A stretch of 45,156 nt of DNA from Candidatus Microgenomates bacterium (GTDB taxonomy: Bacteria > Patescibacteriota > Microgenomatia > Levybacterales > UBA12049). How positions within the stretch are numbered: the first letter of the stretch is position 1; each line of letters opens with the position of its first letter. Of this stretch, positions 7,957 to 19,655 are shown piece by piece. Position numbers and translations under genes: made by a program. The stretch spans positions 1-45,156 of the forward strand of contig JANWJT010000018.1 in NCBI GenBank assembly GCA_025451755.1. Direction: 5' to 3'. Under the pieces are notes generated by a model that was given only the letters and a program-made list of their open reading frames with translations, had not been told where the DNA came from and made no database searches.

Positions 7957-7985
7957 TTGACAAGAAATTTTTAGTTTGGTATAGT
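7957..7985 (+). promoter_or_regulatory. Strong sigma70-type promoter upstream of the 8048 gene and the DUF2292 gene
   Basis: TTGACA-17 nt-TATAGT with TG extension. Confidence 0.75.
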
Positions 7986-8002: not shown

Positions 8003-8026
8003 GCCCCGATGAGGGGTTTTTTATTT
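8003..8026 (+). terminator. Short terminator-like hairpin in the 5' leader
   Basis: GCCCC-GATGA-GGGGT followed by TTTTTATTT, just downstream of the predicted transcription start. Confidence 0.35.
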
Positions 8027-8802: not shown

Positions 8803-9021
8803 ATGGTGGGTTCTCAAAAAGATAAAGTTGCCATAATCAGCGAAATAAAAAAGGCTCTTGATGATATGGTATTCGGAAGTGTTGAGCTCTATGTCCAAAA
8901 TCGCAAAGTTACTCAAATTACAGTCCGCCACATAAAAAAGACAAATGTCGAGATGGAAAAAATCCCACAAACTGATTCTCAAGATAAAATCAATTTAAAA
9001 ATAGGTATTGACAAACAATAG
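8803..9021 (+). CDS. DUF2292 / YezD-like small protein
   Basis: 72 aa; I-x-x-AL-x-x-x-x-FGSVELYVQNRKVTQI matches the DUF2292 pattern (helix, then FGSV-x-I-x-V-x-x-x-x-V-x-QI). Confidence 0.75.
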   Translation: MVGSQKDKVAIISEIKKALDDMVFGSVELYVQNRKVTQITVRHIKKTNVEMEKIPQTDSQDKINLKIGIDKQ

Positions 9022-9038
9022 CACAGCATTATATAAAT
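9008..9038 (+). promoter_or_regulatory. Candidate promoter for the repeat-protein operon
   Basis: TTGACA at 9008-9013 (inside the end of the DUF2292 gene), AT-rich TATATAAAT 16-18 nt downstream; -10 position ambiguous. Confidence 0.45.
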
Positions 9039-9065
9039 GGATTTAACAGTTTAATTTAAGTTTAT

Positions 9066-9088
9066 AAGCTGACCGCAAACGGAGGCTT
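9066..9088 (+). promoter_or_regulatory. Conserved leader RNA hairpin, copy 1 (candidate antiterminator element)
   Basis: AAGC-TGA-CCG-CAAA-CGG-AG-GCTT; the 17-nt core 9069-9085 is identical to 19462-19478 on the - strand. Confidence 0.7.
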
Positions 9089-9143
9089 TTCTACCTGAAA
9101 TCTTTAGAAGGATTTCGGATAGAGGAGCCTCCGTTTTCGTTTT
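9077..9143 (+). terminator. Long leader terminator hairpin overlapping the conserved hairpin
   Basis: 9077-9093 pairs with 9120-9136 (17 bp incl. G-U) and 9095-9104 with 9109-9118; T-rich tail TTTTCGTTTT; mutually exclusive with the 9066-9088 hairpin. Confidence 0.7.
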
Positions 9144-9156
9144 AAAACGAAAACGG
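9131..9156. repeat. Perfect 26-bp palindrome
   Basis: CCGTTTTCGTTTT|AAAACGAAAACGG. Confidence 0.85.
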
Positions 9157-9175
9157 TGCAAAGAAGTGCAATCCA

Positions 9176-9192
9176 TCCCGCCTTTGGCGGGA
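9176..9192. repeat. Short GC-rich REP-like palindrome
   Basis: TCCCGCC-TTT-GGCGGGA; single copy seen in this window. Confidence 0.55.
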
Positions 9193-9228
9193 AAAGGAAA
9201 TATATAAAAGAGAGGAGGTGAAACATAA

Positions 9229-10467
9229 ATGAATAATACAAAACAAAAATTAGGAGTAGCAATTGCAACCGGAGCGCTTTTACTTAATGCTTTTGCTCCA
9301 CTCGCAATGGCAGATAACACAATCCAAATTTCTGGAAACGGTTCAAACTCAAACAACACAGCTAATGTGAATGTGAGTCAATCAACAACTGTTGTTCAAA
9401 ACAACACAGCGCACGTTACTAATAATGTTGATGTTGATGCAGATACTGGAGACAATGACGCAAAGGACAATACTGGCGGAGAAGTTTCTATCGAAACCGG
9501 TGATGCCGATGTAGACGTTAATGTTTCTAATACTCTCAATAGCAATAGTGCAAATGTTGATTGTTGCCAAAACGGAGATACCGAAGTCTTAATTCAGGGA
9601 AACGGCACAAATTCTGATAACGATGCCAACTTGAATTTAACAACAAATACAAGTGTTTTCCAGGATAATTACGCACGCGTTAATAATGATATTGATGCAG
9701 ACGCAGATACTGGAGATAATGACGCAAAGGACAACACTGGCGGAGATGTTTCTATCGAAACCGGTGATGCTAGCGTGAAAGTTTCGACTTCCACAACGGC
9801 AAATGCTAACTGGGCAAAAGTTGGAAGCTCAGGGCAAAACGGTGGCGTCAGCCTTCGAATACTTGGCAATGGAAGCAACAGCGACAACACAATCAATCTA
9901 GATTTAGATAATTCTGTAGTATTGACCCAGAATAACGATGCAAACATCGATAACGATGTTGATGCAGACGCAGATACTGGAGATAATAACGCAGAAGACA
10001 ACACAGGCGGAGATGTAATTATCAAAACCGGTGATGCTGATGTAGATGTTGAAGTTGATAATGCTGTAAATTTCAATTGGGCAGACGTAAATTGCGGATG
10101 TCTTCTTGACGATTTGTTGGCAAAAATCGATGGAAACGGCACAGATTCTGACAATGAAATAAATGCTTCTCTCTCTTTCGACAAAGGAGAAGGTTCATTT
10201 CAGGATAATGCTATTTGTCTAAATAACGATTTAGACGATATAGATGCCGATACAGGCGATAACGACAACAAAGACAATACCGCAGAGGGAGATAGCGATC
10301 CATTAATTGAAACCGGCGATGCCGATGCAAAAGTGGACGTAAATAACTCTGGTAATGTCAATGTACTCGGTGGCGATTCAGACTCTGAATGGCCAGATTT
10401 TGACTTTGACGTAGATTTTAATCTAAGTTTAAGTGAACTTCTCGGACTTCTTAGTTTGTTAAGCTAA
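9229..10467 (+). CDS. Secreted acidic Asn/Asp-rich repeat protein (4 repeats of ~85-90 aa), candidate major fibre subunit
   Basis: Perfect SD GAGGAGGTGA at 9212-9221; signal peptide ending AMA; four GNGxxSxN...QxNxA...TGDN...NTGG...IxTGDA repeats; no sortase motif. Confidence 0.8.
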   Translation: MNNTKQKLGVAIATGALLLNAFAPLAMADNTIQISGNGSNSNNTANVNVSQSTTVVQNNTAHVTNNVDVDADTGDNDAKDNTGGEVSIETGDADVDVNVSNTLNSNSANVDCCQNGDTEVLIQGNGTNSDNDANLNLTTNTSVFQDNYARVNNDIDADADTGDNDAKDNTGGDVSIETGDASVKVSTSTTANANWAKVGSSGQNGGVSLRILGNGSNSDNTINLDLDNSVVLTQNNDANIDNDVDADADTGDNNAEDNTGGDVIIKTGDADVDVEVDNAVNFNWADVNCGCLLDDLLAKIDGNGTDSDNEINASLSFDKGEGSFQDNAICLNNDLDDIDADTGDNDNKDNTAEGDSDPLIETGDADAKVDVNNSGNVNVLGGDSDSEWPDFDFDVDFNLSLSELLGLLSLLS

Positions 10468-10477
10468 TCTTTGGTCC

Positions 10478-10515
10478 GTAGGGTGTCTTGTTGGCACTTC
10501 GACAAGATGCCCTAC
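10478..10515 (+). promoter_or_regulatory. 16-bp intergenic hairpin without U-tract (candidate mRNA stabiliser or processing signal)
   Basis: GTAGGGTGTCTTGTTG-GCACTT-CGACAAGATGCCCTAC, 16 bp including 3 G-U pairs; followed by AGCCAGG, not poly-T. Confidence 0.6.
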
Positions 10516-10569
10516 AGCCAGGACTTAAAATTTAAAACTTGGACTGCCCGCAGATTTTAGATTTTAAAA

Positions 10570-12720
10570 ATGAAAATTAAAAAATATATATCGATACTAT
10601 TAATAATATTACTAGTCCAGTTTCAGGGCAGTTCTGTTTTTGCTTTTGAAATACCAAGTGCGCCTACAGCTCCTTCAGCTCCTGAATCAACGGCTCAGGC
10701 ACCTACAGCTCCTTCAGCTCCCGAAGCACCAGAAGCTCCAACTCTTGAGGAAGTTTTAGCGGATTCAGATCCAATTCCTACTGAGATAGAAGAAGAGGAA
10801 GACGAAGAGGATAAAGACGATGTTCCACAAATTCAAGAAACAATATCTCAGAATCAAGAGCAAGAAGGAGTCAATGATTCCGGGAACGTTGGGGACACAG
10901 CTATAGATACTGGTAATGCAAATACCACAGGTGCATTAACAACCTTAGGGAATACAAATGTTAATAGCTCTGGTGTAGGAGAGGATGGAAATAGTGTGGG
11001 AGTTATAAATTCCGGAAATGGAACAGATTCTACAAATACTGGTTCGGTTTCTCTATCGGGAGAAAATAATACATTTCAGGATAACAGTGCTGTGGTTGGA
11101 AGCAATCTTAGCCTATCCGCTGCAAGCGGAGATAATACTTCGGATAATAATGTAGGGAATACAGCTATAGATACTGGTAATGCAAATACCACAGCAACAG
11201 TTATTACAGGAGTAAATACAAATGTTGATGGAATTATGGTTTCTGAATTTAATATAGCGGATGACCATATTGGGGATATTGTTCTGGATTTTGGTGCAGG
11301 TTGTGTTTTTGGATGTGGCCAGACAGATTCAATTTTAGCACAAAACTCTGATAACGGATCAAATTCTACGAATAACGCAGCTGTTTCCGATACGTCCAAT
11401 ACTAATACTTTTCAGACTAACGATGCATCAATTGAAAGCAATCTTACACTTGATTCGGATTCTGGCAATAACTCTACAAGTGCCAACACTGGAGGAAATT
11501 CAACGATCGAAACAGGAGATGCGAATGTAGGCGCCAACCTACTGACATTCGTAAATAATAATGTCGCAGGAAATGTTGTTTTTGGAGTTGTAAATATATT
11601 TGGGGAATTGGTAGGAGACATATTTTTCCCTGAAAGTGCCCTATCCTGTTCAACTTGTGGCGGAGATGCAACCGCTGTAAATTCTGGTAACGGCTCGGAT
11701 TCAACAAATAATACAACAGTAAGCCAGACAAATTCCGATTCAACATTTCAGTATAACGACGCAAATATAGAAAATAATTTAGTATTATCAACAGCAACCG
11801 GAGGAAATGAGGCATCTGGCAATACAAACGGAAATTCAACAATAGAAACTGGAGATTCTGAGGCTATAGCTCAAGTTTTAAATATTGCGAATATGAATGT
11901 AGTTGGAGGAGATATGTGGCTAGTTTTGGTTAACGAAGCAGGGCAGTGGATTGGAAAAATTTTGGGGGCATCCGACGGAGCAAATTACGCTGGATCAACT
12001 GGCACAGAGTTTGCAATAGATGAAAATGGTGAGATCACAGCAATAAATTCCGGAAATGGTTCGGGTTCGGATAATAACTCAAGCATCTCTCAGAATACAA
12101 ATAACACTGTTGTTCAAACAAATACTGCAAATGTTGTAAATAATTTAAATCTTTCTGCAAATACCGGCGGGAATACGGCAAGTAACAATACTGGAGGAGA
12201 CTCAAAGATTAAAACAGGAGACGCAAAAATAATTGCAAATGTAGTTAATTTTGTAAATAACAATATAGTCGGAAACGGAAGATTGTTTGTAACGGTAGTC
12301 AACGTGTTTGGAAGTTGGATGGGGGATTTCGTAACGCCAGAGTCTCACAAAGAAAATAACAATGCAGGAATTGGGGGAGAACAAGCAGCAAGCCCGTCAG
12401 CTTCGAGTAATAATCAGCCAAATAATAATTCTTCTGGCGGTAGCTCTAATTCGTCCAGCTCATCAAACAACTCTATACAATTAGTGAGTGGAATAATAAG
12501 TGGTCTTTCAAGAAATACTCACGTATTAGGAATTTCTGCGCAAAACGTAAACGAAAGTCAAATACTTGGAGCAAATAATACCGGAGAAGCAGCTAGTTCC
12601 CAAAATAAAAAAGTAACGATTAATTTGGCATGGGTGATTTTATTTGTTCCAATTCTATTAACATTTTTTCTTTTTAGAAAAAGATTTATTTCAGCAATAA
12701 GATTGGTGGCTCGAAAATGA
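10570..12720 (+). CDS. Secreted Asn-rich repeat protein of the same family (about 4.5 repeats) with C-terminal membrane anchor
   Basis: Signal peptide (VFA), APTAPSAPE repeats and acidic tract, same repeat motif, S/N linker, C-terminal TM + RKR. Confidence 0.8.
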   Translation: MKIKKYISILLIILLVQFQGSSVFAFEIPSAPTAPSAPESTAQAPTAPSAPEAPEAPTLEEVLADSDPIPTEIEEEEDEEDKDDVPQIQETISQNQEQEGVNDSGNVGDTAIDTGNANTTGALTTLGNTNVNSSGVGEDGNSVGVINSGNGTDSTNTGSVSLSGENNTFQDNSAVVGSNLSLSAASGDNTSDNNVGNTAIDTGNANTTATVITGVNTNVDGIMVSEFNIADDHIGDIVLDFGAGCVFGCGQTDSILAQNSDNGSNSTNNAAVSDTSNTNTFQTNDASIESNLTLDSDSGNNSTSANTGGNSTIETGDANVGANLLTFVNNNVAGNVVFGVVNIFGELVGDIFFPESALSCSTCGGDATAVNSGNGSDSTNNTTVSQTNSDSTFQYNDANIENNLVLSTATGGNEASGNTNGNSTIETGDSEAIAQVLNIANMNVVGGDMWLVLVNEAGQWIGKILGASDGANYAGSTGTEFAIDENGEITAINSGNGSGSDNNSSISQNTNNTVVQTNTANVVNNLNLSANTGGNTASNNTGGDSKIKTGDAKIIANVVNFVNNNIVGNGRLFVTVVNVFGSWMGDFVTPESHKENNNAGIGGEQAASPSASSNNQPNNNSSGGSSNSSSSSNNSIQLVSGIISGLSRNTHVLGISAQNVNESQILGANNTGEAASSQNKKVTINLAWVILFVPILLTFFLFRKRFISAIRLVARK
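10897..11194 (+). repeat. Identical 34-nt intragenic direct repeat (10897-10930 and 11161-11194)
   Basis: ACAGCTATAGATACTGGTAATGCAAATACCACAG twice, encoding TAIDTGNANTT. Confidence 0.85.
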
Positions 12721-13838
12721 TAAAGAAAATAATTACATTAATGGCTTTTTTTATAGTAAGTATATCTGTGGCGGCACCGGCTATTTTTGCAGACGAAATT
12801 TCTGTATCAAATAATGGTGCAGGATCAAGCAACACAATAGTGATCGATACCAGTTCTACTTCAACTGTTGAGCAGGCAAATAATGCAGATATACAAAATA
12901 ACGTAGATGTAACAGCAAATACGGGAGATAATTCTGTTTCCTCAAATAATGCAGACGCGCATATAATAACAGGATCTATAGATAGTACATCTTCTATTAA
13001 TAATGAAAATATAAACTCAAATTTTGCAGAAAATCAGGAATGTGGTTGTAGCGATGAAACATCGTCTGCAATAGATGGAAATGGATCCGACTCTATAAAT
13101 AATCTTAACTTATCGTTTATAAATGCTATGAATGTTTCTCAGGAAAACTCAGCACAAATTACGAATAATTTAACAACAAATGCAAGTACTGGTAATAATC
13201 AGGCAAACAATAATAATGGGAATGTTGGCATAGAAACCGGAAATATTACCTCATTAATTTCTATTATAAATAAAAATATAAATTTAAATTCTGACTTTCA
13301 GGGAAAGAATAATGGCTCAATATCAATTTCCATTAGCAATAATGGGAGCGGATCTATTAATAGTATAGTTATGTTTTTTGGCAATAGTAGTAATTATGTA
13401 AGTAACAATTTTACAGACATAAAAAACAATGTAGTACAGAATTTGAATACTGGAAATAACATTGCAAATGGTAATAATGGGGCAGTCTTAATAGTAACTG
13501 GAGATATTATGAGTGTTATAACAATTGGAAATGAAAATATAAATGGTTCATTCTTCAAAGAGCAATGCAACTGCTCCAATATTATTCCGCCTCCTGGTGG
13601 GGGAAATCCAATGCCAATAGGAGACCCGCCGGTAGGAGCGCAGCCTTCTTCAAGCGGAAGTGGATCTTCGATAGGTGGTCCTGGACAAATATTGGGAGCT
13701 GCAATCGGTCAGATTCTGCCCGCAACAGGAGCTTATTGGATATTGCTAATGACAATTCTTGCCATTACAATGTTCTTAGCGGGTGGGGTTTTGCGCTTTG
13801 GTTCGGATTCTTCTCCTCCCTTAGCATATGCAGTCTAA
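12717..13838 (+). CDS. Secreted Asn-rich repeat protein (3 repeats) with LPATG sortase signal
   Basis: Signal peptide (IFA), same repeat motif, Pro/Gly/Ser linker, ILPATG + hydrophobic helix; ATGA-coupled to the upstream gene. Confidence 0.85.
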   Translation: MIKKIITLMAFFIVSISVAAPAIFADEISVSNNGAGSSNTIVIDTSSTSTVEQANNADIQNNVDVTANTGDNSVSSNNADAHIITGSIDSTSSINNENINSNFAENQECGCSDETSSAIDGNGSDSINNLNLSFINAMNVSQENSAQITNNLTTNASTGNNQANNNNGNVGIETGNITSLISIINKNINLNSDFQGKNNGSISISISNNGSGSINSIVMFFGNSSNYVSNNFTDIKNNVVQNLNTGNNIANGNNGAVLIVTGDIMSVITIGNENINGSFFKEQCNCSNIIPPPGGGNPMPIGDPPVGAQPSSSGSGSSIGGPGQILGAAIGQILPATGAYWILLMTILAITMFLAGGVLRFGSDSSPPLAYAV

Positions 13839-14385
13839 AAGACTCAAGCACTTAATCGGAAACGCCTTAATGGCGTTTTCTCTTTTATTGCTGGTTTTTA
13901 TTTATTATCCGATTTTATCTTTATACATTTTTCCGCCTGCTATCGATAAAAAAATTTTAGATAAGTCATTCTATGTAGAAATTCCAAAAATAAATATTGC
14001 ATCGCAGATTATTCCAAATGTAGATCCTTTTATCGAAACAGAATACAGAAAAGCGCTTGAAAGAGGAATAGCTCATGCAAAGAATACACCTCTACCCGGA
14101 GAAAAAGGAACATCTTTTCTTTTTGCCCATTCATCAGATTCTCCGTGGAGAATTACAAGATACAACGTAGCTTTTTTTAGATTGCCCGAGCTTAAAAAAG
14201 GAGATAATATAAAAATAGTAAGAGATGGAAAAGTATACGAATATAGAGTTTCTGATACTAAAACTGTGTGGCCCAATGAAGTTAATTACTTGCTAGGCAA
14301 TAGGAAAGATCAGCTTATTCTTCAAACTTGTACGCCGATTGGCACTTCCTTGCAAAGACTTCTGGTCTTTGCAGTCCTCAAATAA
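13828..14385 (+). CDS. Sortase
   Basis: N-terminal TM; LFAHS (His), LILQTC (Cys), QRLLV (Arg). Confidence 0.92.
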   Translation: MQSKRLKHLIGNALMAFSLLLLVFIYYPILSLYIFPPAIDKKILDKSFYVEIPKINIASQIIPNVDPFIETEYRKALERGIAHAKNTPLPGEKGTSFLFAHSSDSPWRITRYNVAFFRLPELKKGDNIKIVRDGKVYEYRVSDTKTVWPNEVNYLLGNRKDQLILQTCTPIGTSLQRLLVFAVLK

Positions 14386-14431: not shown

Positions 14432-15040
14432 CTACGGAGTAACGTTAAGTGTATTCGATGGGGCAGTAATATTTGCTGTTACGTTGGAAGTACTATTTCC
14501 AGTCGTTACATTTACTGTGCCATTGGTGTTGCTGTTGGCACTATTATTGCCGGTTCTTGCTCTAGATCTAGCTTTCTTTACTTTAACCTTTGTTGTGTTG
14601 TTCTGACCAACGGTTGTTGGATTGGTCGTATTCGACGTTACGTTGCTTGTCGAACCAACTCCATTGCCCGATACAGTAAGATTGACCGTACTGTTGCATG
14701 GGCAAGTCGTTACATTGGCCTCGTTAAAACTTCCATCTACGGTAATATTTACGATAGAGTTTGCATTTCCGGTGTTGATTGTAACATTTCCACCGGTATT
14801 ACTATTTGCATTATTGCCACCTGTTTTTGCCGAAGAAGATATATTTATTGATATATTGGTGTTGTTATTCTGCGTAATATTGGTTGAATTATTTGAGCTA
14901 ATATTTACGCTGTTGTTTGAATCGCTACCATTTCCTGAAATATCAACATTTACATCTGCGTATACGCCTCCGGGAAGAAGGGCAGAAAGCATAAGAGTAC
15001 CAATAGTGAGTGTTGTTACCAGTCTTTTTTTGTAATCCAT
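14432..15040 (-). CDS. Secreted Asn/Thr-rich repeat protein (2 repeats, second one basic), same family as 9229-13838
   Basis: The track GTG at 15049 is part of the SD AAGGAGGTGA, so ATG 15040 (MDYKKR) is preferred; signal peptide ending VYA; two SGNG...QNN...TGxN...NT...TGN repeats joined by CPC. Confidence 0.8.
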   Translation of the reverse strand: MDYKKRLVTTLTIGTLMLSALLPGGVYADVNVDISGNGSDSNNSVNISSNNSTNITQNNNTNISINISSSAKTGGNNANSNTGGNVTINTGNANSIVNITVDGSFNEANVTTCPCNSTVNLTVSGNGVGSTSNVTSNTTNPTTVGQNNTTKVKVKKARSRARTGNNSANSNTNGTVNVTTGNSTSNVTANITAPSNTLNVTP

Positions 15041-15081
15041 TTTATTCACCTCCTTTCATCGTTTATTTTAAAATTTGTTAT

Positions 15082-16116
15082 TTATAACTCGCAGTTTATT
15101 TCTGATTCCGCATTGCATGTGTCAGTATTAAATCCGCCGTCTGCGTTATCTATTCCAGATCCGCCTATTAAGTTATCATCGCCTGAATCACCATTTAGGG
15201 TGTCGGAGCTATCGTTTCCTTCAAGAAGATCATTGTCGTTGCCTCCCTCAAGAAGATCCGCGTTCTCATTACCAATAAGATGATCGTTTCCATCTCCTCC
15301 ACGCAAGGTATCTGCTCCCAGTCCTCCAATTATCAGATCATCGCCAGCCTCTCCATAGATAGAGTCGGCTCCATCGTTACCAAAGATAACATCATTACCT
15401 TCTCCTCCGTGAATCGAATTTTCGGCTCCGGGTCCTCCAAGAATGCAATCGTCTCCGCCATTTCCATTTATAATATCGGACCCCTCAAGTCCCATGATAA
15501 GGTCGTTTCCGCTAGTTCCGTTAAGTGTTTCTCCCTGAGCAGTTCCTACGATGGGATCAGGAGAAAAATTTATTCCTTCACACTCCGTAGGTATGTCTAC
15601 CGAAATACCTATAATAAGATCAAAAACTACTTTTGCTCCCTGGTACTCATTTCCTGAATCGGATGGGAAAGTAGCTTTAAAACTGTACGTAGTTGAGTTA
15701 CCATTATTAATTGTCGAAAGAAACAGCCCATTTGGTCCGCCACTGTCGTCAAAAAATTCCTGAAGTGTTTTTGGTCCAGTCGGACTTGTTCCGCCATAAA
15801 GATCATTTCCTCCTTCGGAAATTACAAAGTCTAAAATTGATGCAAAGCTTGCAATTTCTTCCGTTTTAATACCTCTTATGCCAACGTTTCTTGGAACAGT
15901 TCCGCCATTTGCCACATCAACACTCCTTTCCTCTACGTCGCCTGGCAACATATTTGAGACAACAAAAATCGGATCGCCGTCCGGAACTCCCCAGACAACA
16001 TTTAAATCTCCAACTGCCCTTACCGTTGAAGGGTTAAAAAGATTTGGGGCAAAAAATTTAACAATCGTTCCGAGGACCAAGACCAAAATAAAAATTTTCA
16101 ATAAAATTTTTTTCAT
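15082..16116 (-). CDS. Secreted TasA/camelysin-like domain protein with C-terminal RTX (hemolysin-type Ca-binding) repeats
   Basis: NMLPGD...R.V.V.N.G and FPSDSGNEYQG...F resemble TasA/CalY; many GGxGxDxLx nonapeptides; lacks the FSDTETS N-terminal strand. Confidence 0.75.
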   Translation of the reverse strand: MKKILLKIFILVLVLGTIVKFFAPNLFNPSTVRAVGDLNVVWGVPDGDPIFVVSNMLPGDVEERSVDVANGGTVPRNVGIRGIKTEEIASFASILDFVISEGGNDLYGGTSPTGPKTLQEFFDDSGGPNGLFLSTINNGNSTTYSFKATFPSDSGNEYQGAKVVFDLIIGISVDIPTECEGINFSPDPIVGTAQGETLNGTSGNDLIMGLEGSDIINGNGGDDCILGGPGAENSIHGGEGNDVIFGNDGADSIYGEAGDDLIIGGLGADTLRGGDGNDHLIGNENADLLEGGNDNDLLEGNDSSDTLNGDSGDDNLIGGSGIDNADGGFNTDTCNAESEINCEL

Positions 16117-16120
16117 AAAT

Positions 16121-16885
16121 TTACGGCGCCTCTGTTGGAGTTAGTGTTGCACTCGGAGTTGCTATAGAGAATACGTTTGATGCCTGGAAAACATTCTGAG
16201 CACTTGTCTCCGTATCGCTTTGAAGTGCAAGAGTAATCGGAATAATAAGTCCAACAGCAAGTAGAGAAACTATGACTTTAAGTCCTGTTGATCCCAATCC
16301 TGAATGAGGAGAGGGCATTAGATTAAAATCATCCTCACGTCTCTTATTACTTTTTTTAGCGTTTTTTACATGCTTTATGATGTTAAACATTTCCATTAAT
16401 ATTACGAGCACTGCTGGGAAAATAATAAGAAGCGAAAATCCAACTTTAGATTTTGCAAAAGCCAAAAGTTTTCCTACAGCAGGAATAGTAATAAAGGTTT
16501 TTCCTAATATATTTTTCTCGCTAACAGTCCAACCGTCAGGCTCATCATTTGCATCTCCTTTTGTCTTATAGGCAACACCATTATTATTTGTTTCAGCGCT
16601 TACGATTCTATGTGTGATTATTGTTTTTGAGTTCTTCTCGGACCTAAAAGCTATAACATCTCCCTTATTGTATAGAGGTGTTGTAAGAGGAACAGGAGAA
16701 TCTAATTGATTTGCTGAGCGAACTACAACAATTGAGCCAACATCAATTGTGGGAGTCATAGAGCCAGAACGGACAATAAGTGCCTGATTACCAAAATAGG
16801 GGATTGCAACGTAAGCAACTCCCACTGCAATAAAAACAAGTGCTATTGATAGTAGAATATTTATTGCTTTGAATACTTTTGCCAT
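16121..16885 (-). CDS. sipW: SipW-type (ER-like, S26B) signal peptidase I with C-terminal extension
   Basis: VRSGSMTP (catalytic Ser), ITHRI (His), TKGDAN...D motif; adjacent to SipW-cognate substrates. Confidence 0.9.
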   Translation of the reverse strand: MAKVFKAINILLSIALVFIAVGVAYVAIPYFGNQALIVRSGSMTPTIDVGSIVVVRSANQLDSPVPLTTPLYNKGDVIAFRSEKNSKTIITHRIVSAETNNNGVAYKTKGDANDEPDGWTVSEKNILGKTFITIPAVGKLLAFAKSKVGFSLLIIFPAVLVILMEMFNIIKHVKNAKKSNKRREDDFNLMPSPHSGLGSTGLKVIVSLLAVGLIIPITLALQSDTETSAQNVFQASNVFSIATPSATLTPTEAP

Positions 16886-16945
16886 ACATGCTTTTCTCTC
16901 CTTTTAATTGTTATTTAATATATTGCCTTGAACCTTTGGGCCCTT

Positions 16946-16976
16946 AGGGCGGGGAACTTATTCTCTCACCCGCCCT
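16946..16976 (-). promoter_or_regulatory. GC-rich intergenic hairpin without U-tract downstream of the TasA-like major subunit
   Basis: On the - strand AGGGCGGG...CCCGCCCT (8 bp), followed by AAGGGCCC rather than poly-T. Confidence 0.55.
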
Positions 16977-16996
16977 TAAACTGAATCCATTAAGGA

Positions 16997-17905
16997 TTAA
17001 ATGGATGGTGTTGGCGTAACTTCTGGCCAAACTGGTGTAAAGTTCTGAGCACATGTAAATGTGCCGTTATTTCTAGACTGTACTGCGTAGAACTGTAAAT
17101 CTCCTATTACAGAATCAGTCTGAGCAATATTATCAATTGCTTGTGCACCAGAACATGTAAATCCAGTTCCTCTGTTTATTGGATTATTTAGTGCTGGGTT
17201 TGGATCGTCTCTGTCAGGACGTGGATCCGGTGTCAGAGTTCCAAAGCACCATTGCTTTCCAATGTATTGAGTTGTAGCCCCCTCTACTGGTCCTGATCCT
17301 CCCCAAATATTGGTGGATGAATCTGCCAATGCAATCTGTCCAACTTGACCCATTCCACTGATTGGACCTTGTAGGAATACATTCTCGTTTACTTCAAAGA
17401 CATTATCTCCATCGTCACCCCAGAAGACAATATTAACTTGACTATCTAGGTCACCGTCTGTGGTGCCGTCATTATCATCATTGTTTAGACCAGACACTTC
17501 GTCTTCTGGTTCTGTAATATCATTGTCTTCGTCCTCGGTAATTTGAGCTGCTGCGCAAAGATATGCATCATTATTGTCAACAGTCAATGAGATTGTGTCT
17601 TCTCCAAAATCACCTGGCTTAATGTCTTCAAAGTTGAAGAACTTTTCGAGAACTAAATCCGTAGAATCCCATGAAGTTCCTTCATTTGCGACAAGAACTC
17701 CTGTTGGATTCAAAGTATCTGTCAAATAATCAATTACATAACTCTCGTTATCTATCTTAAGATCAATAGCTCCTGCTACCAATGTGTTTCCCGTTGATGT
17801 TTCGGTATCAGAAAAGAATGCAAATGTCGCTCCGATTATAAGAGCGGCAGCTGCAAGTACTACTGCAATCGAAAGTAATATTTTCGTATTTATTAAGTTT
17901 GTCAT
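16997..17905 (-). CDS. TasA-like protein with SipW-cognate signal peptide, candidate major subunit
   Basis: GATFA-FFSDTETSTGNTLVAGAIDL signal/N-strand; FNFEDIKPGD motif; perfect SD AAGGAGGTGA at 17913-17922. Confidence 0.85.
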   Translation of the reverse strand: MTNLINTKILLSIAVVLAAAALIIGATFAFFSDTETSTGNTLVAGAIDLKIDNESYVIDYLTDTLNPTGVLVANEGTSWDSTDLVLEKFFNFEDIKPGDFGEDTISLTVDNNDAYLCAAAQITEDEDNDITEPEDEVSGLNNDDNDGTTDGDLDSQVNIVFWGDDGDNVFEVNENVFLQGPISGMGQVGQIALADSSTNIWGGSGPVEGATTQYIGKQWCFGTLTPDPRPDRDDPNPALNNPINRGTGFTCSGAQAIDNIAQTDSVIGDLQFYAVQSRNNGTFTCAQNFTPVWPEVTPTPSI

Positions 17906-17935
17906 TTATTTTTCACCTCCTTTCGTCAATAGATT

Positions 17936-19369
17936 TTATTCGCAAAGGTCTAAGTTTTGTAAAGCTGTTTGTAAACCGCTGTAGTTACTAACCGAGAAAT
18001 AATGACTTGCGTCTGTGGCGATCCCCTGTAAATAAGATGTATTAACATCAGCTCCAACTCCGACTACGAAAACTTCACCACCGCCTGATTTAAACGATGT
18101 TGCAGAAGCCGCCGCAACATCATCGGCAGTTGAGGAGGGAAGTGGTCTGTTTGGCTGACCATCGGTTACTATAATCATCTTGTCCGGAGATGTTCCATCT
18201 GCTCTATCATTTACTCCGCTTAATTCTCCTGCTGCTAGGTCAATACCTGATTTAAGATTTGTGTAGCCTCCCGATACGAGTGCGTCAATTGTTGCCTTAA
18301 GCGTAACAATATTTGAGGTTAATCCGTGGTTTAAGTCTCCTGTAGTTGCAAAACTACTCTTGCCTGCATGAATTCCTAACGGCGTTAAGCCAAGATCATC
18401 AACGAACGCTTTAGCTGCTGTTTTAAGCTGTCCAAGCTCTGTTGAATTGATGCTTCCTGATTTATCCAAAACAAGCATTACATCAGCCTGGCTACAGGCA
18501 AGTGGCGTTGGCGTTGGAGTTAGCGTAACAGAAGGAGTAGGAGTAATTGAAGGCACAGTGCCGTTACAAGTAAAGCTTAAATTATTTCTTTGTTGTATTG
18601 CGCTAAAGCTTATGTCTCCCATAACAGAATCAGTCTGCGAAGCATTATTAACTGCTGAACCATCGCAAAGAATTCCTGAATTAACAATTGGATTTACCCC
18701 TAGACCTTCTGCTACCGGATTTTGCGTGAGTGTTCCAAAACACCACGCTTTGCCTATAAAGTATGTTTCACCGCCAATTAGAGGATCTCCGGGATTACCG
18801 CCGACATTATTTGTTACAGAATCCGCTAAAACCAAACTGCTGTCTAAAACGCTTGATGCAGATCCTGATGCAATAATAGGTTCATTAGTTTCTAAAACAT
18901 TATCTCCGTCATCTGTCCAGAAGGCAAAATTAAGTAATCCACCAAGCTCACCGTCGTTTAAGTCTTGATCAGGGTCATTGCAGGTAGGATCATCTGCCTG
19001 CTCCGGCTCTGTGCAGTCAACATCATCGTCTTTTGTAAGGGTCATATCCATGCACGCCCATGCATTATTGGTATCAACGTGAATGCTAATAGTATCTTCT
19101 CCCTCGTCACCGGGCTTTATGTCGGTAAAGTTAAAGAACAGATCATCTGAGGTAAGATTTTTAAGTTCCCATGTAGTTGCCGAAGATAGCTCGTGATTAA
19201 GATAACTTGTGTTATCAATCTTAAGATCTATTGCTCCTGCAGTTAAAACGTTGCCGGTTGATGTTTCTGTATCGGAAAAAAAAGCGAAGCTTGCTCCTAT
19301 TACTAAAACTGCTGCAACAAGTACTGTTGCTAGGCTAAGTAAAATTTTTGTATTTATTAAGTTCGACAT
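17936..19369 (-). CDS. TasA-like protein with SipW-cognate signal peptide, PT linker and C-terminal VWA domain
   Basis: GASFA-FFSDTETSTGNVLTAGAIDL; FNFTDIKPGD; MIDAS motif DKSGS...T...TDG. Confidence 0.88.
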   Translation of the reverse strand: MSNLINTKILLSLATVLVAAVLVIGASFAFFSDTETSTGNVLTAGAIDLKIDNTSYLNHELSSATTWELKNLTSDDLFFNFTDIKPGDEGEDTISIHVDTNNAWACMDMTLTKDDDVDCTEPEQADDPTCNDPDQDLNDGELGGLLNFAFWTDDGDNVLETNEPIIASGSASSVLDSSLVLADSVTNNVGGNPGDPLIGGETYFIGKAWCFGTLTQNPVAEGLGVNPIVNSGILCDGSAVNNASQTDSVMGDISFSAIQQRNNLSFTCNGTVPSITPTPSVTLTPTPTPLACSQADVMLVLDKSGSINSTELGQLKTAAKAFVDDLGLTPLGIHAGKSSFATTGDLNHGLTSNIVTLKATIDALVSGGYTNLKSGIDLAAGELSGVNDRADGTSPDKMIIVTDGQPNRPLPSSTADDVAAASATSFKSGGGEVFVVGVGADVNTSYLQGIATDASHYFSVSNYSGLQTALQNLDLCE

Positions 19370-19385
19370 TTAATTTTATTTCTTT

Positions 19386-19457
19386 TTAATCACAAAAAAA
19401 CCCGCATATTTCTATGCCGGGTTTTGTCTTTGTACAAATTAATTTGAGTAATTTCAT
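19386..19457 (-). CDS. Possible 23-aa leader peptide MKLLKLICTKTKPGIEICGFFCD spanning the leader terminator
   Basis: ATG lies 4 nt after the GGAGG of the conserved hairpin; the frame runs through the terminator and stops 16 nt before the first structural gene. Confidence 0.3.
   Translation of the reverse strand: MKLLKLICTKTKPGIEICGFFCD
19394..19425 (-). terminator. Intrinsic terminator in the 5' leader of the TasA/SipW operon
   Basis: - strand AAAACCC-G-GCATA-GAAA-TATGC-GGG-TTTTTTT. Confidence 0.75.
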
Positions 19458-19484
19458 ATTTCCTCCGTTTGCGGTCAGAAACAC
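19456..19484 (-). promoter_or_regulatory. Conserved leader RNA hairpin, copy 2
   Basis: - strand GTGTTTC-TGA-CCG-CAAA-CGG-AG-GAAATAT; core identical to copy 1, outer stem different in sequence but still paired. Confidence 0.7.
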
Positions 19485-19492
19485 TTTATTTT

Positions 19493-19515
19493 AAAAAACC
19501 AGCAAAGTGCTGGTT
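19493..19515 (-). terminator. Second terminator-like hairpin in the same leader
   Basis: - strand AACCAGCA-CTT-TGCTGGTT-TTTT. Confidence 0.55.
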
Positions 19516-19655
19516 ATTAAAACTTATAAATTATATTTTTAGTAAAACTGGCAGAGTTATTCATATGATTAAACTATTGAATTTTTCCCTCTGAGTGGGC
19601 AGTTCAAAGAGAGATCTTTTGCCGTTTTTGTAGATATCGTGACAAAAGTACGACC

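Follow-up and report, generated by a model that had tools for sequence, protein, structure and literature searches.

A putative antiterminator/terminator-type attenuator beside a DUF2292 gene in the leader of a secreted repeat-protein operon of Patescibacteria

In the RAT systems governed by BglG, LicT and SacY, binding of the regulatory protein to a leader hairpin prevents termination. In the hut operon of Bacillus subtilis the regulator gene comes first, followed by a terminator and then by the controlled genes, and a small protein permits passage; this protein, HutP, binds UAG repeats as a hexamer, and not a hairpin. PyrR-type antitermination likewise combines a regulator gene, a hairpin that shares bases with the terminator, and the controlled genes, and the targets of ANTAR proteins consist of two tandem hexaloop hairpins. 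The RAT, a system treated in PMC3575810, is a small 5'-leader hairpin with one or more internal loops, the 3' side of which is the start of the terminator.

This paper describes a leader of comparable design in the window, by which is meant the whole stretch of 45,156 nucleotides that was analyzed. Judged by its sequence, this leader (9038-9228) attenuates transcription through competing antiterminator and terminator folds with a probability of about 0.8, and it represents a candidate for a known switch type in a new form, with a candidate new family of antiterminator proteins. The sequence-only reading that preceded this work had proposed a RAT-like geometry and had seen no BglG-family gene in the window; the geometry was borne out, as the putative antiterminator hairpin (P1) overlaps the 5' arm of an intrinsic-type terminator (T), and the absence extends to the 536-kb genome (89.5% complete), in which the best match to the CAT RNA-binding domain (PF03123) reached 13 bits against a cut-off of 25, and in which neither ANTAR (PF03861) nor HutP (PF09021) was matched at E ≤ 0.1. 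The locus differs from RAT systems in that its RNA has no Rfam RAT match, its genome has no CAT_RBD/PRD protein, and an extra downstream helix (H3) re-pairs the terminator tail. Moreover, the candidate protein family (55-90 aa, a helix plus a beta-hairpin) lacks the PTS-regulated domains of the BglG family, a separate promoter lies between regulator gene and terminator, unlike in the hut operon, and P1 is a single hairpin with a tetraloop, unlike the ANTAR targets. Rfam 15 gave no match at gathering score in the window except a tRNA, and cmscan of 8900-9400 at E values up to 10 returned 13 weak matches (miRNA/TLS-like noise), none of them to the RAT family. No Rfam family, solved structure or paper describing a hairpin-plus-DUF2292 switch was found, the literature search covering the main texts of journals open without subscription; the literature retrieved held nothing on antiterminators in Patescibacteria and no stated mechanism for DUF2292/yezD/OscA, the OscA papers being represented by their titles and abstracts.

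The coordinates of the leader, its operon and a second leader are collected in Table 1. A spacer of 207 nt separates the 72-aa gene from the gene of the 412-aa secreted repeat protein (9229-10467), the -35 box of the leader promoter lies inside the 3' end of the DUF2292 gene, and 31 nt lie between the end of the -10 box and the P1 core. This promoter was absent from the list of a promoter scan because the last base of its -10 box is A and not T. The 412-aa protein clusters with 71 of the proteins encoded downstream of P1 sites. Farther upstream, a terminator-like GC hairpin with a T-run (8003-8017) overlaps the start codon of a 262-aa gene, and a near-consensus promoter (7957-7985) lies just before it. 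In metatranscriptomes, 2 runs contained 8-9% of the sampled words, and nine short contigs of 90-97% identity, derived from relatives, covered only 9174-10402.

Table 1. Features of the putative attenuator, the operon downstream of it and the second leader (window coordinates)
Feature	Position	Strand	Description or basis
Candidate factor gene, DUF2292/YezD/OscA family, 72 aa	8803-9021	+	Pfam PF10055 match
Sigma-70-like promoter	9008-9037	+	TTGACA-18 nt-TATAAA, read from the sequence
P1, putative antiterminator hairpin	9066-9088	+	AAGC-UGA-CCG-CAAA-CGG-AG-GCUU; 17-nt core at 9069-9085
T, intrinsic-terminator-like hairpin with U-rich tail	9077-9146	+	Hairpin 9077-9136, tail 9134-9146; folding, inverted repeat, RNAalifold
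H3, perfect palindrome, 26 nt	9131-9156	+	CCG and U-tract pair with downstream AAAACGAAAACGG
Rest of leader	9163-9218	+	GAAGUGC box 9163-9169; GC hairpin CCCGCC-UUU-GGCGGG 9177-9191; Shine-Dalgarno AGGAGG 9213-9218
Putatively controlled operon	9229-14385	+	Genes for three secreted repeat proteins rich in Asn, Gly and Thr (412, 716 and 373 aa) and for a sortase (Sortase PF04203)
Second leader, type B	19386-19500	-	P1 copy, core 19462-19478; AUG 19455-19457; 23-codon ORF; terminator stem ~19401-19421 with U7

P1 by itself folds at -8.5 kcal/mol and consists of an outer stem, a GA/A internal loop, a CCG/CGG stem and a CAAA loop. The internal loop had initially been taken for UGA/AG; it is reduced here to GA/A because U pairs with the last G of AG, and this pair covaries: among 83 distinct alignment rows it is UG in 67, UA in 8, CG in 6, AU in 2 and unpaired in none. 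Neither the core-flanking pair (GC 67, UA 15, GU 1) nor the inner-stem pair (CG 81, UA 2) is unpaired in any of these rows. The earlier description of the hairpin as conserved proved well founded: with at most 2 mismatches, the 17-nt core occurs in 82 of the 194 genomes and 44 of the 89 genera of the window's family, in 1-3 copies each, compared with 9 matches in all for a reversed control pattern, and the window itself holds a second copy on the minus strand. The copies frequently form a convergent pair 6-10 kb apart. Among 110 core places that were fetched, 12 were set aside as chance matches (6 lying inside long ORFs according to a script, 6 judged by eye from their context), which left 98 curated copies; the types of the copies (see below) and the 12 chance matches were assigned by hand. 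When the P1 structure was imposed on the 29-nt windows of the 98 copies (83 distinct rows), 91% of the cells were paired, compared with 81.7% in shuffles, a value equaled by 0 of 500 shuffles, and 5 of the 8 pairs were changed on both sides. Since the copies were found by means of a sequence pattern, conservation of the core is in part given by construction, and the free evidence for P1 is confined to core variants and flanks.

It is confirmed that the 3' strand of P1 doubles as the 5' arm of a long hairpin (9077-9136) with a U-rich tail. An inverted repeat (9074-9105 and 9108-9139) is 81% complementary, and the minimum free energy (MFE) fold pairs approximately 9077-9136, followed by UUUUCGUUUU, which amounts to a stable hairpin plus a U-rich tract on the sense strand; the 5' arm includes the loop AAA of P1 in addition to its 3' strand. 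The 196-nt leader folds at -68.3 kcal/mol compared with -39.2 +/- 4.4 for 200 shuffles (z = -6.6), none of which folded as well. A simple terminator scan did not list the long hairpin, because its stem is bulged and longer than the scan counts. The stem of ~27 bp is unusually long for a terminator, the efficiency of which is assumed here.

In the curated copies, terminators were searched with a script for the best hairpin ending at a U-run, and 4 copies (L099, L061, L023 and L098) were reassigned by eye. Type A, to which the window's leader belongs, comprises 29 copies in which T starts at core position 12; type C comprises 44 copies with a shorter terminator that starts from core positions 14-18; in the 17 type B copies, which resemble the second leader of the window, the terminator lies ~40 nt downstream and does not overlap P1; and 8 other copies have no terminator. 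P1 and terminator thus overlap in 73 of 98 copies, in which the two folds are mutually exclusive because the terminator starts inside the 3' strand of P1. The RNAalifold consensus of the 29 type A leaders is T itself, with 21 pairs, 7 of them carrying compensatory changes; the base of T, AAACGGAGG/CCUCCGUUU, is invariant among these leaders, and the U-tract is present in 29 of 29. The share of copies with a TTGAC-N16-19-TAnnnn box ahead of P1 is 22/29 for type A, 39/44 for type C, 13/17 for type B and 5/8 for the others, compared with 1/12 for the chance core matches.

Several further elements were observed around these leaders. In the part that corresponds to 9163-9218 of the window, type A leaders keep the GAAGUGC box and have a near-invariant ribosome site, AGAGGRGGUGA, and in their alignment a GC-rich hairpin differs in sequence between genera with its pairing maintained. 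In type C leaders, which are 200-300 nt long, the terminator is followed by UGUAAG..CUUACA-like hairpins or by a GUCUUAC motif, and the GUCUUAC motif is also found in leaders of relatives without the DUF2292 cassette (loci of these observations: L024-L032, L055, L088-L090, L105, L116, L118; L248-L252). This motif may belong to an older and separate control of the repeat-protein gene. A second conserved motif consists of hairpins with the loop ..ACUGCCCA.., which occur near type B leaders (approximately 19585-19612 on the minus strand of the window) and directly after P1 in the 8 terminator-less copies (loci with this hairpin: L023, L049, L059, L091, L095, L096, L099 and L106).

Folding of successively longer transcripts, for which the energies are equilibrium predictions and not kinetics, indicated that P1 remains the MFE structure of the growing RNA up to a 3' end at ~9126, and that T wins once 9130-9137 have been made. 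For an RNA ending at 9143 the T fold is predicted at -45.0 kcal/mol and the fold with P1 enforced at -23.3 kcal/mol, a gap of 21.7, and for an RNA ending at 9160, with H3 available, the values are -49.1 and -39.2 kcal/mol and the gap is 9.9. Over the 29 type A leaders the median gap decreases from 15.8 to 9.3 with H3, and it is smaller in 28 of 29. Termination as the default, which had been suggested before, is therefore what these predictions lead one to expect, the T fold being far stabler than the P1 fold at the decision point (gap 21.7 in the window, median 15.8). The palindrome of Table 1 does reuse the base and tail of T, as proposed, with arms (9131-9143 and 9144-9156) that are 100% complementary and have no spacer. 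A role of this palindrome as a lock on the ON fold, also put forward in the sequence-only reading, fits the smaller gap in 28 of 29 leaders. The palindrome is the local form of an H3-like helix, in which CCG plus U-tract pairs with an A-rich stretch farther downstream that closes with CGG; all 29 type A leaders have such a helix, and in 23 of the 29 its MFE lies in the lowest 5% of shuffles. That its sequence, loop size and insertions vary among type A leaders with the pairing kept speaks for a helix in RNA and against an operator in DNA.

A mechanism can be proposed on these grounds. Transcription would start from the promoter in the end of the DUF2292 gene, and P1 would be the first structure of the RNA. 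If P1 were left unheld, the 3' arm of the long hairpin would invade it at AAACGGAGGCUU and T would form, upon which RNA polymerase would stop in the U-tract (~9137-9146) and leave an RNA of ~100 nt. A factor clamping P1 in response to a signal would block the lower 12-14 pairs of T, the upper hairpin would then be parted from the U-tract by unpaired bases, and the polymerase would read on. Pairing of the CCG and U-tract with newly made AAAACGAAAACGG would finally remove the 3' strand of T and preserve the ON fold in the complete mRNA. As the factor, which the sequence-only reading had left unnamed, the 72-aa DUF2292 protein encoded directly upstream would be the most likely candidate. We consider it rather probable that the full model holds, with default termination that is relieved when a factor, probably the DUF2292 protein, stabilizes P1, and with H3 then steadying the read-through fold.

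The 72-aa protein matches Pfam PF10055 with 32.2 bits, over the cut-off of 22, and the related NCBIfam model, named 'sulfur starvation response protein OscA' (NF033785), with 31.8 bits, below the cut-off of 85; it is a relative of OscA and not an OscA orthologue. In an alignment of 58 orthologues, G25, S26, E28, Q32, Q38, I44 and K46 are invariant. The AF2 model (pLDDT 75) contains a helix (5-20), a beta-hairpin (25-43) and a disordered basic tail; it matched no solved RNA-binding fold (best Foldseek E = 2.1), and the protein had no sequence match in the PDB. Since the model resembles no solved structure, it is only from the genetics that we infer binding of P1 by the protein. A homologous-protein search returned 1413 matches, of which the 120 listed were all of the Patescibacteria type, and a control search matched the family in Bacillus subtilis; tblastn against plasmids and phages gave no match.

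A PF10055 ORF ends at most 180 nt upstream of 66 of the 73 P1 sites of the overlapping types (A and C), and of 0 of the 6 type B sites that were given. From the other side, 79 small ORFs precede a P1 copy within 180 nt, and 66 of them match PF10055 at E ≤ 0.01, 65 with scores over the cut-off. Three of the seven misses (L058, L076 and L108) belong to genomes whose DUF2292 match lies 138-160 nt upstream of P1. PF10055 is present in 86 of the 194 family genomes, and a cross-tabulation made by eye counted 74 genomes with P1 and DUF2292, 8 with P1 only (at least 4 of them by chance), 12 with DUF2292 only and 100 with neither. In 8 of the 12 DUF2292-only genomes the best whole-genome match of a P1 covariance model lies ~100-170 nt downstream of the DUF2292 gene, and the other 4 gave no match to this model. 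Among 151 sampled genomes of the phylum, the P1 model was found in 3 and PF10055 in 4, both being essentially confined to the window's family; a single DUF2292-like gene seen in a different family (G252) is not accompanied by P1. Repeat protein and DUF2292 occur together in 74 genomes, and P1, DUF2292 and target genes are largely co-inherited as one island; kinship between the genomes makes the co-occurrence counts look like stronger support than they are.

Relatives without the DUF2292 gene delimit the unit that is gained or lost. The repeat protein is encoded in 91 of the 194 family genomes, 17 of which have no DUF2292, and 14 of these 17 are also without a P1 pattern match. The region upstream of the repeat gene was fetched in 6, of which G014, a different paralogue at a contig end, was left out. 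In the remaining five (G057, G071, G077, G171 and G190) a homologue of the 262-aa gene, with 38-45% identity and aligned to its last residues, directly precedes the leader and the repeat gene, and the 262-aa gene is also found upstream in all 29 type A loci. Between these two genes, DUF2292 (HMM, E ≤ 1), P1 (model with filters off, E ≤ 1) and any hairpin plus U-run visible by eye were absent in 5 of 5 relatives. Gene, promoter, P1 and T thus behave as one cassette that is present or absent as a whole between two conserved genes.

A counterpart was found in a sample of 251 genomes of Bacillota, the phylum of [Clostridium] aminophilum, which had been reached via a chance pattern match. PF10055 occurs in 37 of these genomes. 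Out of 30 DUF2292 loci, 13 show, right behind the stop codon of DUF2292, a hairpin of the form YUGA-stem-loop-stem-A-GGC that a terminator overlaps, for example CUGACCAG-ACAA-CUGGAGGC with a terminator beginning at GGC (P1 model and direct reading); two variant loci come in addition to the 13 clear ones, and 17 of the 30 show no clear hairpin. A looser structural scan, which demanded only GA after two paired bases, was positive in 16/30 downstream windows, 6/30 reverse-complement windows and 4/30 upstream windows, and a stricter scan of whole loci placed 15 of 39 same-strand matches in a stretch of 235 nt that follows the stop codon and makes up 7.8% of the sequence. The letters YUGAYC...GRAGGC of the Bacillota hairpins match P1 of the window, which ties one RNA class to one protein family. 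The two versions share the DUF2292 family, the hairpin design, YUGAYC...GGAGGC and a terminator that starts from the 3' strand. They differ in the inner stem, of 3 bp with a CAAA-type loop in the window's family and of 4 bp in Bacillota; in the extra elements of type A leaders (H3, GAAGUGC box and a further hairpin); and in the controlled genes, which in the window's family encode surface repeat and camelysin-like proteins, whereas in Bacillota they serve sulfur assimilation. The genes downstream in Bacillota encode PAPS reductase (3), ATP sulfurylase (4) and PLP-dependent enzymes (2), besides a B12-binding protein, an ABC ATPase, a solute-binding protein and a radical-SAM enzyme. One Bacillota locus (L404) has a 39-aa DUF2292 remnant 36 nt before an ORF that was read by eye as PAPS-reductase-like, without hairpin or terminator, and looks like a decayed cassette. 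The part of PMC4342826 that covers cysH of B. methanolicus lists a SAM riboswitch before this gene and no DUF2292-type hairpin there. In the repeat proteins, a cysteine content of 0.6-1.2%, compared with a background of 0.58%, gave no clear signal of sulfur economy.

The second leader of the window, in which P1 has a compensated outer stem (UUUC/GAAA), precedes a camelysin-like/VWA gene (17936-19369). Its GGAGG lies 4 nt before the AUG, its terminator is canonical, and in type B leaders generally an AUG follows GGAGG by 1-6 nt in 16 of 17 copies, the 17th having an in-frame AUG inside GGAUG. In 11 of 16 the leader ORF has its stop codon within the stem of the terminator, and the leader peptides are not conserved between genera. 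This suggests leader-peptide attenuation in type B, with P1 masking the ribosome site, and, by way of speculation, formation of P1 could there favor termination, the opposite of type A. The convergent operon (14432-19369, minus strand) has genes for a pair of Peptidase_M73 (camelysin/TasA-like) proteins, of which one carries a fused VWA domain, as well as for an S26 signal peptidase and an RTX-repeat protein, and looks like a TasA/SipW-like fiber locus in an ultra-small bacterium.

A pattern scan of viral contigs yielded 80 listed loci that were read, of which 78 are chance matches in GC-rich coding DNA and 2 look real; these two (L141 and L173, IMG/VR, 7 kb each) carry the P1 core and an overlapping terminator, with no DUF2292 in the record. 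Among 80 listed loci from a corresponding scan of genome contigs, 79 are chance matches and one is real (L280), on a 104-kb contig of a MAG labeled Gammaproteobacteria, with a type A P1 and T and a DUF2292 gene (E = 1.2e-21). Its GC content is 0.37 over the 819-nt fetched locus, and it is probably a mis-binned Patescibacteria contig.

Other explanations of the leader have to be weighed against attenuation by a P1-binding factor. P1 could be a very small riboswitch or RNA-only sensor (of a metabolite, an ion or temperature), with DUF2292 as a mere neighbor; the almost invariant core with its conserved asymmetric internal loop would suit a sensor, as would a DUF2292 fold that gives no hint of RNA binding and two viral fragments with P1 and T but no DUF2292 gene. 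P1 has only ~23 nt and 7 pairs, however, it matches no Rfam family, its linkage to the upstream gene is kept in two phyla with completely different downstream genes, and gene and element are lost together, all of which makes a protein-independent sensor improbable. It is similarly unlikely that T is the plain terminator of an operon of the 262-aa gene and DUF2292, with P1 and H3 as stability or processing elements and the repeat operon driven independently. A conserved competing hairpin would be superfluous for a plain terminator, most copies have a promoter-like box after the DUF2292 coding body and ahead of P1, type A leaders have only ~90 nt from T to the start codon with no promoter-like box listed, and P1 is also found at the head of the convergent operon, a long way from DUF2292; on the other hand, there is no other terminator between the DUF2292 stop codon and T, and the 200-300 nt with further motifs between T and the gene in type C leave room for a second promoter.

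The GGAGG in P1 might also be a Shine-Dalgarno or standby site, such that T is blocked by a bound 30S subunit or by translation of a short leader ORF, the role of P1 being only to mask the site. The type B leaders, with their AUG after GGAGG (16/17) and stop codon in the terminator stem (11/16), speak for ribosome-dependent attenuation of this kind, but an AUG within 14 nt is absent from the leader in the window and from 77 of the 81 further curated copies outside type B, GGAGG is also present in Bacillota copies without an ORF, and leader peptides are unconserved between genera, and we accordingly hold it to have little likelihood. Finally, P1 and the 26-bp palindrome might act as DNA operators at which a transcription factor, possibly DUF2292, blocks elongation or initiation. 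The palindrome is perfect in DNA, and DNA-binding proteins (AbrB, MazE and HU-like) are among the Foldseek rows, which are weak and non-significant; yet one P1 pair is dominated by G-U wobble (67/83), the conserved GA/A asymmetry is meaningless in duplex DNA, the H3 pairing is kept while sequence, loop size and insertions vary, and P1 shares bases with the hairpin and U-tract on the sense strand only (73/98 copies), so that operators of this kind appear very improbable indeed. Attenuation by competition between P1 and T remains the preferred reading; comparative and thermodynamic evidence supports it, and the computable parts of the sequence-only reading all turned out as that reading had it.

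A wider view can be offered tentatively, at somewhat less than even odds. DUF2292/YezD/OscA could constitute an unrecognized cross-phylum family of tiny RNA-binding antiterminators, each encoded beside its own hairpin-plus-terminator as a portable cassette, which would gate sulfur assimilation in Bacillota and would have moved before major surface-fiber genes, with the H3 lock, in the Patescibacteria family; the second copy may set the convergent camelysin-like operon oppositely via its leader peptide. The mechanism can be tested at the bench because the Bacillota version sits in cultivable organisms. If true, it would provide a function and a testable RNA target for DUF2292/YezD/OscA, would enlarge the small set of known hairpin-versus-terminator switches by a new protein-RNA pair, and would offer one of the rare ways into the regulation of genes, here those that build the cell surface, in ultra-small bacteria that are uncultivated.
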